A stretch of 64,000 nt of DNA from a virus. A program made the position numbers and the translations under genes. The stretch lies in IMG/VR virus record IMGVR_UViG_3300025009_000052; one strand, 5' to 3'. A model generated the notes under the pieces. It did not search any database. It saw nothing but the letters and a program-made list of their open reading frames with translations, and was not told the DNA's origin. Numbering within the stretch: position 1 is the stretch's first letter; each line of letters begins with the position of its first letter. Shown here in pieces: positions 22,621 to 44,675 of the stretch.

Positions 22621-24489
22621 ATGGGTAGGGGAATCAAAATACTAATAGATAAAGACCGACTAATAGATTTATATCTAAACCAAAACAAGACTATACCCGA
22701 AACAGCTAAGGAATTGAATTGTGGCCACACTAGTATTATAAGATATCTCAAGAAATACAATATTACTAAACCCTTAGAGTTAAAACACCAAAATGTTTCG
22801 AGATCAAATCGAAGAATAGATCATCAAAAGTTAATTGACGACTATTTGGTTAATAAAATGCTTACTCCTGAAATAGCTAAAAAATATAACACCAATGTAT
22901 CGTCTGTTGCAAGGATATTGTCCGATCACAATGTTGATGTGGACGATCGATATAGGCAATACCGAAAAAAAGTAGCCGACGACAATATTCCCTATAAAGA
23001 TATTATTGAATTGTATATTAATCAAAATAAGACAGCTTTAGAGGTGGCAAATATTCTTAAAATAAGTGAATTTAAAATTAGAAAGTGTATGGATAAAATA
23101 GGCACAAAGAAAACGAAAGAAATGTGGACTAAGTTAAATACTAATAAAGACACGCAATGGGATTTACTAAAAAATCCAGAATGGTTTTACCAAAAATATA
23201 TTTCAGAAAACAAGACTATAATTGAGGTTGCTAAGGAGGCTGGGTCAACCATTAGAATGGCTAGGCTTTATCGGATTAAGTATGGTTTTAAAAAGAGTAC
23301 CGAGCAGAAGGGTAGTTTTTTACAAAAAAATAACAGTAATGTTAAAGATAAAGAATGGCTATATCAAAAGTATATTGTAGAGAATACTAGAATTATCGAA
23401 ATAGCCGAACAGGAAAATATTAGTATGTGGTTGGTTGAATATTATATTCATAAGTTTAACCTACACAAAAGCCATGCGCTCAAAAGAAAGCTTAGGATAG
23501 AAACTAATATAAGCAGGGGGAACCAGACTTGTATTTTTGGGCAAACGATCGATGAATTGGCGGAACAATACAAATTATCACATTCTTTTACTTGGTCTTT
23601 GTTTAAGAGGAATTCCTTCTCCACCTATGAAGAATTACACTCTTTTTTGGCTAAAATCAGTATAGATAGATTTACTAGTTTAGAACTGTATACCAATAAG
23701 CTTTTGGGGCTAGAGAATTATAATCAAAAAGCACACCTCACATTAAACTATAAGCCGGATTTCAAAATAAGTGACATTTTATATTTAAACGTTGATGGTT
23801 TGTATTGGCACTGTGAAAAAGAGGTGGACGATAGTTACTATCATTTTACCATGAGACAAAAATATGAGGAGTTAGGTCTGCAAATTCTCCAATTCCGTGA
23901 AAACGATATTTATAAAAATCCTGAAATAGTCAAGTCTATTGTGAATAATAAGACAAATACTAATATTGCAACTATCTACGGTCGTAAAACTGAAATTAAA
24001 GAAGTAAAAACTGAGGACGCTAAAGAATTCCTAACTAGGTGCCATTTAAAGGGCTATTTTTCGGGAAAACACATAGGTCTGTATTATAATGGCAATCTTA
24101 AGAGTGTGCTAAGTTATAAGATTTACGATAAAAACACCCTTAAAGTTGAAAGATTCTGTACAGATTTGAATACTAGAATTATTGGTGGGTTCTCTAAGTT
24201 ATTAAAATATTTAGAAAGAAATGAGAGTTTTAAAGAAGTTTATTATTGGGTTGATTTAAAGTATGGAACTGGTAAATTTTTAGAGCAATTGGGATTCCAA
24301 CACTCTCACGATACTTTAGGTTGGGAATGGACGGATAAGTTTGATACCTTTAATCGTAGAAGGTGTCGGGCTAATATGGATGAGAGGAAGCTTAAAGAAC
24401 GTGAATATGCCAATGAATTAAAATGGTATAAGATTTACGATGCTGGTCAGAGGTTATTTGTGAGGAAATATGTACAAACTACTACTTAA
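22621..24489 (+). CDS. Second Hef-like homing endonuclease with repeated HTH modules
   Basis: Repeated LYQKYI..NKT..EIA units; KPDF...NVDGLYWH, IYGRKT, YWVDLKYGTG, IYDAGQ. Confidence 0.78.
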   Translation: MGRGIKILIDKDRLIDLYLNQNKTIPETAKELNCGHTSIIRYLKKYNITKPLELKHQNVSRSNRRIDHQKLIDDYLVNKMLTPEIAKKYNTNVSSVARILSDHNVDVDDRYRQYRKKVADDNIPYKDIIELYINQNKTALEVANILKISEFKIRKCMDKIGTKKTKEMWTKLNTNKDTQWDLLKNPEWFYQKYISENKTIIEVAKEAGSTIRMARLYRIKYGFKKSTEQKGSFLQKNNSNVKDKEWLYQKYIVENTRIIEIAEQENISMWLVEYYIHKFNLHKSHALKRKLRIETNISRGNQTCIFGQTIDELAEQYKLSHSFTWSLFKRNSFSTYEELHSFLAKISIDRFTSLELYTNKLLGLENYNQKAHLTLNYKPDFKISDILYLNVDGLYWHCEKEVDDSYYHFTMRQKYEELGLQILQFRENDIYKNPEIVKSIVNNKTNTNIATIYGRKTEIKEVKTEDAKEFLTRCHLKGYFSGKHIGLYYNGNLKSVLSYKIYDKNTLKVERFCTDLNTRIIGGFSKLLKYLERNESFKEVYYWVDLKYGTGKFLEQLGFQHSHDTLGWEWTDKFDTFNRRRCRANMDERKLKEREYANELKWYKIYDAGQRLFVRKYVQTTT

Positions 24490-35629: not shown

Positions 35630-37042
35630 ATGGATAAAATTTATGTTAGTATTAATGGTGATAATATCGGTTCTGAACTTGGCCAAGCTATTGCTTCTGA
35701 CGATCACGAAGGTCTGGGCAAATTATCCCAATCAATTAAAGATAACCATTCTGAAATAGACCAATGGGTTGAATCTAAACAAGGTCGAGTGATAGTGTCG
35801 TCTGGGGACGAATCAATATTTGAGATTCCAATTGAAGCTGCTCAAGAATTAGAAGGAATTCGTGATAGATATAAAGAGATGTCTGGCCATAGTTTAACTA
35901 TTGGCGTTGGTTCAACAATGAGCGAGTCTTCCAAGGCTTTAATCTACGGTAAGATGAATGGAAAGAACCAAATTGTTGAGTATTCACCAGAAGTAGATAA
36001 ATTTTTAGCAGAAAACAATGTAGATGAAGATTCTGAAATTCCAGAAGATGAAAATATTCAGGAAAATGCAGATTCCTCAATTGAGGACGACTCCGATGTT
36101 CCAGAAGAGTCAGAAGATAGTGATTTAGAAGGTATACCTGAGGAAGATAATATTCCAGCAAGCGAAGAAGTCTCTGAAGAAGTCTCTGAAGAAGATATGT
36201 CCGAAGGTGATACTGTTCCAGAAGATGAAGTTAAGGAAACTGGTTTTGACGAGGAATCTACGGAACCAGAAATTGACAATATTGATGAGTCCACAGAAGG
36301 CGAAGAAATGCCTGAAGAGGATGTGTCCGAGGAAGGTGAAGAAAATTCAGAGGAAAATTTAGAAGATATATCTGAAGAAGCTCCAGAATTATCCGAAGAT
36401 GACGAGAATTATTTCGATATAAATCCAGACGAAATAGAAGAATTAAAACCCGAACACGTTGCTAATGGTGACTTAACATATCAAGGCGATCAACAAGAAA
36501 ATTCAAAAGACGAAGAGGACTATGTTGGCCCACAAGATGAGGATGGTTTAGAGGGAGACTCTGAGGGTGAAGAGATGCCTGAAGAAAATTCAGAAGAAGG
36601 TGGCGATAGATATGATATGTTATCTAATATGATACATGGCCATTTATCTGACCAACAAGACCCTAATGAATCCGAAGAAATGTCAGAAGGCGAAGAAATA
36701 CCTGAAGATATGCAAGACGGTCAAGAAGATAATAGTTCTGAATTAAAACAAGATATTTTCAATGCATTGCAGGGTTTTAAGCAAAATAAGGCTATGTTAG
36801 AAGACGCTAAAGAAAATAATCCAGAATTATATCAATCTCTCATTACTATGCTTAGGTCTATGATTCAAATGGCCAAACAACTAAATGGTTATGATCCAGA
36901 AGAAGATATGCAAGATGCCGATGGTCGTAGTGAGATTGAAGAAAGTTTACCTCATGCTGGGGAGTTTCAAGATGATTCTGAAATGCCAGAAGATGCTTTA
37001 CAAAACCCAGATGACGTAAAAAAAAACCCCTTAAATCAATAA
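35630..37042 (+). CDS. mCpol-like palm domain + acidic disordered linker + helical C-terminal domain
   Basis: YVSINGDNIG...GRVIVSSGDE...LTIGVG.TMSES.KALIYGK.NGKNQI. Confidence 0.7.
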   Translation: MDKIYVSINGDNIGSELGQAIASDDHEGLGKLSQSIKDNHSEIDQWVESKQGRVIVSSGDESIFEIPIEAAQELEGIRDRYKEMSGHSLTIGVGSTMSESSKALIYGKMNGKNQIVEYSPEVDKFLAENNVDEDSEIPEDENIQENADSSIEDDSDVPEESEDSDLEGIPEEDNIPASEEVSEEVSEEDMSEGDTVPEDEVKETGFDEESTEPEIDNIDESTEGEEMPEEDVSEEGEENSEENLEDISEEAPELSEDDENYFDINPDEIEELKPEHVANGDLTYQGDQQENSKDEEDYVGPQDEDGLEGDSEGEEMPEENSEEGGDRYDMLSNMIHGHLSDQQDPNESEEMSEGEEIPEDMQDGQEDNSSELKQDIFNALQGFKQNKAMLEDAKENNPELYQSLITMLRSMIQMAKQLNGYDPEEDMQDADGRSEIEESLPHAGEFQDDSEMPEDALQNPDDVKKNPLNQ

Positions 37043-37332
37043 GTTCACTTCCAGACAATCCAACTAAACACATTCCTATACCACAATCTCCAGTAGGTGC
37101 TGAAAAAGACGGTAAAATGAAAGTGGTTGATGGTACAACGGGGCGTGAATCCTGGAGAGGCGTGAGGCGTGGAATTCTGCGTGATTTTGATTCTGATCCT
37201 ACCTCTAAAAACTACAATAAATCCCAAATGAAAAAAGCTCCTCACCATTCTGCCCACGAAGGTGGGAAGCGTAGAGGGTCGGTTCCTCATATGGGATATA
37301 GGGATACTAAAGAAGGGCCAGAGGAACAATAG
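37021..37332 (+). CDS. -1 frame extension of 35630..37042 (probable frameshift product)
   Basis: The -1 frame opens just after TGA 37012 at the A9 run and reads KKPLKSISSLPDNPTKHIP...GPEEQ; weak RBS for the internal ATG 37117. Confidence 0.6.
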   Translation, partial: KKPLKSISSLPDNPTKHIPIPQSPVGAEKDGKMKVVDGTTGRESWRGVRRGILRDFDSDPTSKNYNKSQMKKAPHHSAHEGGKRRGSVPHMGYRDTKEGPEEQ

Positions 37333-37335
37333 AAG

Positions 37336-38091
37336 ATGTCTAATTTAAAACTTGATATTGATATTGAATCTATTGTAAAAGACTTCAAAGAAGTTAAGAA
37401 ACAGGTTGAAGCTGAGTTGGTGCAGGGGGTACAAGCGTTGGCTTCGATGACAAACGCACGACTTTATGAGGTGTCAAGAGACGGTTTAAAATCCCTTAGA
37501 AAAAAATACCAAGATGCTATAGAATTTACCAACCCTGAGGCTAATCTATGGATAGTTTCACTAAAAGAAGAAGCTATGTTTATTGAGTCGGGGAGGAAAA
37601 GTGGATGGATGTCTGAATTACTTAATGGTAAATCTGCTAAAACAAGTAAAGATGGAAAAAAATATGCTATTATCCCATTCGAGATGTCTAAAAATCCATC
37701 GGAACAAACACCAAAAGCCCAGGACTTAACCAATCAAATCAAAGCTTTTTTAAAGCAGCAAGGTGTTAGTTATAAGAAAATAGAACATAATCAAGATGGT
37801 AGTCCTAGACTTGGATTACTCCATAAATTTGATATAGACTCTGCTAGGCCTAGTCCGATGGCTAAAGATCCGGCATTGAAGGGACTTTCTATTTATCAAC
37901 ATAAAATGAGTGATGGAAGTATTAAAAGACAACATATGGTTTTTAGAATTATACACGAATCTCACCAATCTCAGGGGAAATGGGTCCATCCTGGTCTAGA
38001 GGCGAAGAATTTTATGGATTCGGTGTTTTCATGGGCGTGTGAGCAGTGGGAACAAACCATCCTACCGTCTATCTTAAAAGACTACAAATAG
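37336..38091 (+). CDS. Virion morphogenesis/neck protein
   Basis: A.FIE.G...GKKYAIIPF...FR.......W.HPG...NFMD pattern of SPO1/Twort-like structural proteins. Confidence 0.6.
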   Translation: MSNLKLDIDIESIVKDFKEVKKQVEAELVQGVQALASMTNARLYEVSRDGLKSLRKKYQDAIEFTNPEANLWIVSLKEEAMFIESGRKSGWMSELLNGKSAKTSKDGKKYAIIPFEMSKNPSEQTPKAQDLTNQIKAFLKQQGVSYKKIEHNQDGSPRLGLLHKFDIDSARPSPMAKDPALKGLSIYQHKMSDGSIKRQHMVFRIIHESHQSQGKWVHPGLEAKNFMDSVFSWACEQWEQTILPSILKDYK

Positions 38092-43706: not shown

Positions 43707-44675
43707 ATGGTAATATATAAAATTACAAACACTATCAATGGTAAGATCTATATTGGTCAAACCGTCAACTTAAAGATGAGGTGGAAAGCTCACTTGAAAT
43801 GTGCATTAAAATCTAAATACCCCCTCTATCGGGCTATGAGAAGATATGGAACCCATGTTTTTAAAATAAGCCAAATATCAAAATGCGACAGTAAAGAAAT
43901 GATGAACCATCGTGAAATATATTATACTAATTTATTTAATAGTACTATTCCTAATGGATATAATATATCTATCGGGCCCAACGATCGTTCATCTGATATT
44001 GCTTTAAAATGGAGGAAGTGTAGGTGGTTTAACATATGGTCTTTAGAAACGGGACATATTATAAATATGATGAGAAATCAGTCAGAAGCTGCTAGAAAAT
44101 ATAATGTCCAACAAAATGGGATTTACTTAAATCTAAATAAAAAACAGCCTTATTGTGGTAGGTATATTTTTTCATATATAGAAGATAAGGAAAAAATAGA
44201 ACATAGTATTAAAAGTACGATGTTAAAAGCTAGGCACAGAAAATTCAAAGTGTTTGATTCTAATAAGAATTTTATCGGAGAGTGGTCTAATATTAGTAGA
44301 TGTGCCAATTATTTAAAAATTTGCTTATCTGAATTATCCGAGGTAATGACCAATAATATTGGTTTTTACCATAATTACATATTTATATACTCCAACACGC
44401 CTAATTTCGAGCAAGTTTTGGTAGAAAAATTAGAACAGTCTAAAAAATATGTAAACAAACACTCAGATAAAAAAGTTAGGGTGTTTAAATCGTTATTACT
44501 AGTTAAACCAACTGTTAAAAATAAAGCAGTATACTCCAAAGGACAATTTGTTGGCGAATGGCTAAGTGTAGATGAGTGTTCCAAATCAATCAATATTAAT
44601 AAGGGATATGTGAAAGATTGTTTGTCTGGTCGAAGAATACATCGCAAGGGCTATATGTTTGAATATATTGATTAA
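43707..44675 (+). CDS. GIY-YIG homing endonuclease with NUMOD1-like repeats
   Basis: VIYKITNTINGKIYIGQT...RWKAH...GYN; three GEW/HTH modules. Confidence 0.9.
   Translation: MVIYKITNTINGKIYIGQTVNLKMRWKAHLKCALKSKYPLYRAMRRYGTHVFKISQISKCDSKEMMNHREIYYTNLFNSTIPNGYNISIGPNDRSSDIALKWRKCRWFNIWSLETGHIINMMRNQSEAARKYNVQQNGIYLNLNKKQPYCGRYIFSYIEDKEKIEHSIKSTMLKARHRKFKVFDSNKNFIGEWSNISRCANYLKICLSELSEVMTNNIGFYHNYIFIYSNTPNFEQVLVEKLEQSKKYVNKHSDKKVRVFKSLLLVKPTVKNKAVYSKGQFVGEWLSVDECSKSININKGYVKDCLSGRRIHRKGYMFEYID

Follow-up and report, generated by a model that had tools for sequence, protein, structure and literature searches.

Among described systems with a −1 slip, E. coli dnaX (tau/gamma) and the IS911/IS3-type cassettes combine an SD-like tract with an A_AAA_AAG-type heptamer and, a few bases 3′ of it, a hairpin. 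Transcriptional slippage, which needs no RNA structure, is the mechanism in Thermus thermophilus dnaX, Shigella mxiE and the IS elements with A9/T9 runs (PMC1088944). The dnaX products are reached by two different routes, ribosomal frameshifting in E. coli and transcriptional slippage at an A9 run in Thermus thermophilus (PMC1088944). In phages, gene 10A/10B of T7/T3 and the tail-chaperone pair G/GT undergo a −1 shift near the 3′ end of a late gene, which places a C-terminal extension on a fixed fraction of the product. Here, we describe a phage gene family that resembles each of these systems in part, and whose members carry a domain related to mCpol, the signal synthase of the bacterial Panoptes defence system. 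Literature searches returned no report of recoding in mCpol genes; the mechanism is textbook and the gene family is new to recoding, making this a new case and not a new principle. The homologous gene of the cultured Myxococcus phage Mx1 (WNM70340.1; OR576727.2, 33963-35369) is found at the corresponding position of the late gene block; its N-terminus is mCpol-like and its C-terminus bears the same tail motifs, but it is annotated as a single ORF with the tail fused in frame and no slip site, in a G+C-rich genome. Our searches found no literature on the Mx1 genome or its virion proteins.

The gene under study comes from an uncultured phage, represented by a complete IMG/VR virus record of 155,481 bp with direct terminal repeats and 34.4% G+C; the DNA was assembled from groundwater metagenomes. 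We analysed 64,000 nucleotides of this genome, and "the window" refers to that whole stretch (features in Table 1). The 470-aa protein, encoded among virion genes, consists of an N-terminal mCpol domain (59 bits against PF18182, above the curated cut-off of 26.4), followed by a long acidic stretch and, towards the C-terminus, a conserved helical part. Its reading frame (the 0 frame) ends GAT GAC GTA AAA AAA AAC CCC TTA AAT CAA TAA. Two in-phase heptamers are found within the A9 site, A_AAA_AAA (37018-37024) and A_AAA_AAC (37021-27), both in the overlap between the 0-frame and −1 ORFs. The −1 frame is open from 37015 to 37332, a reading of 105 codons that ends in TAG (37330-32), just before the start of the next gene. 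An initial annotation, made from the sequence alone, had described the A9 run, its slippery heptamers, a −1 frame closed at 37012 and open to 37332, and an extension adjoining the next gene; reading the sequence again gave the same layout, and recomputation returned the same isoform sizes of 470 and 567 aa. The long isoform would comprise residues 1-465 plus the extension, with ...DDVKKK-PLKSISSLPD... as the predicted junction and DVKKKPLKSISSLPD as the predicted junction peptide. A message with ten As would read ...VKKKPLKS..., which is identical to the −1 product, so that one added base fuses both ORFs.

Table 1. Features of the recoding locus (positions are those of the window)
Feature	Position	Strand	Details
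0-frame ORF, short isoform	35630..37042	+	470 aa, pI 4.05, 150 Asp+Glu
mCpol domain (minimal CRISPR polymerase), residues 5-118	35642..35983	+	Pfam PF18182, E=7.2e-16
TGA closing the −1 frame, just 5′ of the slip site	37012..37014	+	sequence read
Slip site	37018..37027	+	A9 run 37018-37026 with both in-phase heptamers
Predicted −1 frame extension	37024..37332	+	102 codons plus TAG; basic, pI 9.87
0-frame stop TAA	37040..37042	+	5 codons past the first heptamer
Conserved N-terminal part of the extension, SLPDNPTKHIP..PVGAEKDGK	37045..37116	+	24 residues upstream of the first possible start
Internal ATG, likely gene-caller start	37117..37119	+	first ATG/GTG/TTG in the −1 frame
Next gene	37336..38091	+	251 aa, phrog_16819, function unknown; adjoins the end of the extension

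Very probably, one late gene of the mCpol family gives rise to two proteins by a −1 slip near the end of its ORF. The family message would yield a short, acidic mCpol protein and a long form of the same protein with a basic tail of about 70-110 residues. For the window, we infer from the DNA sequence that a long form is made, and likewise its proportion and the machine responsible for it.

Homopolymers are error-prone and fused relatives exist, and a sequencing or assembly error could hide a true A10 and, with it, a single 567-aa ORF. Across positions 36700-37500, contigs from four runs of four different studies (depths 250, 111, 24 and 4.9) show no difference of any kind, and all of them have A9 with no indel; the fourth of these contigs spans 36760-37261 only, and three of the four may themselves be the source of the window DNA. 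These are assembled contigs, where a minority of A10 molecules would not show. On record are 20 contigs that encode exactly this 470-aa product, and a split layout is the norm in the family. An A10 assembly error, which the initial annotation had raised against its own reading, is thus not borne out, and we regard a single ORF on a true A10 as very unlikely.

The relatives of the extension indicate that it is real coding sequence and a member of a conserved family. A search of 1.84 billion representative proteins with the 105-residue −1 reading returned 29 relatives (best E=2e-31), and the extension is 81% identical to one relative, P0045. Common to the relatives is the pattern LP..TKHIP..Q.P.G..K.GK.KV.DG.TG..SWR.G..G..RD.DGDP. 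No start codon of this frame precedes the conserved N-terminal part of the extension, which could therefore be translated only by ribosomes coming from the mCpol ORF. This bears on the reading of the locus as two separate genes, in which the tail would be translated alone from ATG 37117 as a 71-aa protein. That ATG does exist, gene callers report such short ORFs in relatives, and about 6 of the 26 relatives described below have an ATG two codons before the Leu-Pro motif. A start at ATG 37117 would, however, drop 24 conserved residues, ahead of which there is no ATG, GTG or TTG. Its SD-like pairing is weak as well (−2.9 kcal/mol, no better than 36% of all ATG triplets), in line with the initial annotation, which had noted that this codon lacks a good ribosome-binding site. 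A separate start would also leave unexplained both the −1 frame of the extension in all 26 loci and the heptamer in every overlap, and homologues with the two parts fused exist. We therefore regard separate genes as very unlikely.

Extension and surroundings yielded little else by way of known features. The extension has no Pfam or PHROG family; an AlphaFold2 model of the tail, of modest confidence (pLDDT 69), predicts a small three-stranded sheet, for which Foldseek returned no match in the PDB. No tblastn match in the phage collection was found for the tail (P0002) or for that of a relative (P0050). Neither the terminator-like hairpin at 37167-82 nor the single promoter-like site exceeds chance expectation. 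The initial annotation had also read PLKS, YNKS and MKKA in the extension as protease cleavage-like sites, and here conservation lends no support: only MKKA fits [LIM]-x-K-[SAGT], and among 18 family members it recurs in the nearest relative only. In two larger proteins, P0061 (1122 aa) and P0066 (1027 aa), similarity to the tail motif recurs in 7-8 separate stretches, which may be repeats of the motif or mere low-complexity similarity.

How the arrangement behaves across the family was followed in loci gathered from IMG/VR and JGI/ENA metagenomes, using the mCpol alignment as the query for the metagenome scan. After removal of duplicates, this gave 26 distinct unfused loci, i.e. loci in which the extension forms an ORF distinct from the mCpol ORF. 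Throughout this set, the extension lies in the −1 frame and overlaps the end of the mCpol ORF by 10-88 nt, and in all of them the overlap contains an in-phase X_XXY_YYZ heptamer, followed within 0-8 codons by the 0-frame stop. The most common heptamer is A_AAA_AAG (19 loci), accompanied by A_AAA_AAA, G_GGA_AAG and C_CCA_AAG (two loci each) and G_GGA_AAC (one locus). Of the −1 motifs measured in E. coli, C_CCA_AAG, G_GGA_AAG and A_AAA_AAG rank as the top three in efficiency (PMC4066793). In the upstream parts of these genes, only 38 of 7722 in-phase codons carry an X_XXY_YYZ heptamer (0.0049 per codon), so their presence in every one of these short overlaps is more than chance. With the slippery heptamer and the −1 layout kept in 26/26 loci, and an ATG next to the conserved Leu-Pro in only the few loci mentioned above, the homologues offer no conserved independent start, the finding that the initial annotation had said would speak against it.

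IMG/VR scans with the nearest relatives (P0003, P0045, P0034 and P0035) brought nothing new. The phage collection contained no nucleotide match to the window, and only Mx1 was matched there, in the mCpol domain alone; the bacterial genome collection contained no relative.

Most of the relatives also appear to carry elements that would stimulate slippage. A hairpin lies 3′ of the heptamer in 24 of the 26 loci, with folding energies of −11 to −24.5 kcal/mol, and usually starts 4-7 nt downstream. Compared with shuffled sequences, the fold z-scores are −4.46 for locus L015, −2.64 for L004 and −2.33 for L052. The conserved SLPDK motif supplies the 3′ arm of the hairpin through its Leu-Pro codons, and the 5′ arm varies with the Leu codon, resulting in compensating pairs of arms such as GGAAG/CUUCC, GGCAG/CUGCC, GGCAA/UUGCC and GGGUAGG/CCUACCC. 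In an arm-swap test, 5′ and 3′ arms from the same locus paired with a mean of −15.75 kcal/mol, against −10.29 kcal/mol for arms taken from other loci, and none of 10,000 permutations was as good. In a covariance-model alignment, 84.8% of cells pair versus 69.9% in shuffles, and the covariation score is 0.349 versus 0.159 (0/500 shuffles), being best at slide 0 and above all slid versions. Such an alignment leans towards structure, and the arm-swap permutation test is the more independent evidence. Aligned with MAFFT alone, the hairpin region gave no more than five pairs, as spacer length varies by one base between loci. On the other side of the heptamer, an SD-like tract is enriched 5-19 nt upstream (mean −4.58 kcal/mol versus −1.52 kcal/mol for the background). 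The typical family member has a predicted three-part cassette of the dnaX/IS911 type, in which an SD-like tract would be followed by the heptamer, the nearby 0-frame stop and the hairpin. In L004, L006, L031, L033, L038 and L005, the tail reads ..PMSLPDK, with the ATG sitting within the 3′ arm of the hairpin where a hairpin is present; this ATG is probably the start used by gene callers.

The cassettes of the relatives differ from E. coli dnaX in that the shifted product is the shorter one in dnaX and would be the longer one here. They differ from both dnaX and the IS cassettes in that the gene is for an mCpol protein of a phage virion module. With regard to T7/T3 10A/10B and G/GT, the family described here is neither a capsid protein nor a tail chaperone, and its extension adds to a very acidic protein a tail that is basic and for the most part unstructured.

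The window departs from this scheme. Its RNA downstream of the heptamer folds no better than shuffles (z +1.12 for 86 nt and +1.29 for 146 nt), and the covariance model (R1) has no match in the window, in keeping with the initial annotation, which had seen no obvious stimulatory hairpin. Compared with L052, the closest relative compared by DNA, the stretch that would form the 5′ arm is missing. The SD-like tract is absent upstream of the heptamer too, at +0.4 kcal/mol against the mean for the relatives given above. One other locus of the 26, L005, lacks a hairpin, and within this set only L005 shares A9 with the window; hairpin-bearing loci with A-rich heptamers have A runs of 6-8; this link between A9 and the missing hairpin rests on two loci, the window and L005. 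The window is therefore an atypical family member, and A9 without stimulators is the notable point here. In terms of the proposed mechanism, both stimulators would have been lost and the A run lengthened to nine.

A different reading of the same facts is a recent inactivating frameshift, in which a fused ancestor, such as P0003 or the gene of Mx1, lost one A, leaving a tail that is no longer usefully made and is decaying. The best-scoring full-length homologue found, P0003, is indeed fused and has the same junction, VKKKP, as the window, and the window lacks both stimulators present in its relatives. Yet the tail ORF is unbroken for 105 codons at a genomic G+C content of 34% and is 81% identical to P0045, and assemblies of runs from several studies, with depths of up to 250x, contain the identical sequence. 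Moreover, the A9 run would still give some long form, and the split layout is not peculiar to the window but the norm in the family. Decay of this kind is quite improbable.

Two routes, alone or together, could produce the long form in the window, and each would give the same protein. The first is unstimulated ribosomal slippage on A_AAA_AAA or A_AAA_AAC, which is expected to be low: without stimulators, the best heptamers reach about 0.3% frameshifting in E. coli (PMC4066793), so that the long form of the window may be very rare if slippage by the polymerase is poor. The second is slippage of RNA polymerase that puts one extra A into the message, for which Thermus thermophilus dnaX, Shigella mxiE and some IS elements are precedents. 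As in those systems, the window has its A9 in the coding strand, and such runs are depleted elsewhere in its genome. Runs of at least nine A or T number 2 in the 155,481 bp, against about 18 expected under a first-order model, and runs of at least eight number 11 against about 50. Baranov et al. described such depletion as a sign of active transcriptional slippage, for which the usual threshold is nine bases (PMC1088944). For the window, by contrast, messages of mixed run length are a prediction. The earlier proposal of two isoforms, made by ribosomal or RNA polymerase slippage, is strengthened in its first half by the conservation of frame and heptamer in the family and by the fused homologues; its second half names both ribosome and polymerase, of which we regard the polymerase as somewhat the likelier. 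We give transcriptional slippage close to an even chance of being the main source of the long form in the window. Ribosomal slippage is a somewhat less likely main source.

The second of the two runs of at least nine is a T9 at G000:C1:70788-70796, which lies outside the window and reads as A9 on the coding strand. It falls at codons 3-5 of a minus-strand gene whose product starts MTEKKILIK..., where slippage would abort most translation early and might thus tune expression.

Relatives in which the extension is fused in frame provide a view of the predicted product from another angle. Fusions are found in L019/L043, P0003, P0008 and P0038, besides Mx1 WNM70340.1, and their junctions, e.g. KKKALKKAKDAKSLPDK, resemble the predicted trans-frame products. 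The fused homologues show that the joined protein, as predicted here, is a functional unit. A9 itself is kept in two close relatives, L019 (L019:2131-2181, the same as L043) and L005 (L005:4395-4413). In L019, A9 is accompanied by a tail fused in frame, whereas L005 is unfused and has one extra T upstream that places the tail in the −1 frame. Slippage at A9 in these two loci would yield short and long forms in both, with the default reversed between them. Other layouts were seen as well. P0034 (429 aa, from a JGI contig of 163,760 nt) ends its 0 frame with ...DVKKKPLKTE; this end matches the −1 frame of the window (DVKKKPLKS) and not its 0 frame, so the frame layout at the Lys run flips among near relatives. 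In L049 (L049:4260-4835) and L058 (L058:1758-2040), the mCpol ORF ends without a tail and the next gene follows directly.

One scenario is that recoding changed level within this family, in which most members would use a dnaX-like ribosomal cassette. At least two separate lineages, the window and L005, would have lost both stimulators, with slippage of the polymerase on A9 now setting the ratio of short to long form; the fused L019 may likewise produce both forms, but with the opposite default. We offer this tentatively, as somewhat less than an even proposition. As for dnaX, homologous genes would here seem to arrive at one pair of products along different routes, and, if true, the family would repeat in nature, in a gene of a phage virion module, what distinguishes dnaX of E. 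coli from that of Thermus. Irrespective of the machine, the family forms a natural series for comparing mechanisms, comprising stimulated ribosomal cassettes, A9 without stimulators, and fused genes.

For annotation, this means that the mCpol gene and the small ORF that follows it should be treated as one recoded gene in the Mx1-like phages of about 150 kb. If that holds, the small ORF called from an internal or alternative start codon is an artefact of gene calling. Two forms would have been kept through at least five heptamer types and several frame layouts, which suggests that their ratio matters. Our guess is that the basic tail acts as a packaging or anchoring tag for the acidic protein, and that the slip sets the ratio of tagged to untagged protein. 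The late/structural block of the window further contains two genes resembling homing endonucleases, at 22621-24489 and 43707-44675; one of these endonuclease-like genes is HNH-like (phrog_3339, E=1e-35) and one is GIY-YIG-like (phrog_7168, E=9e-23).
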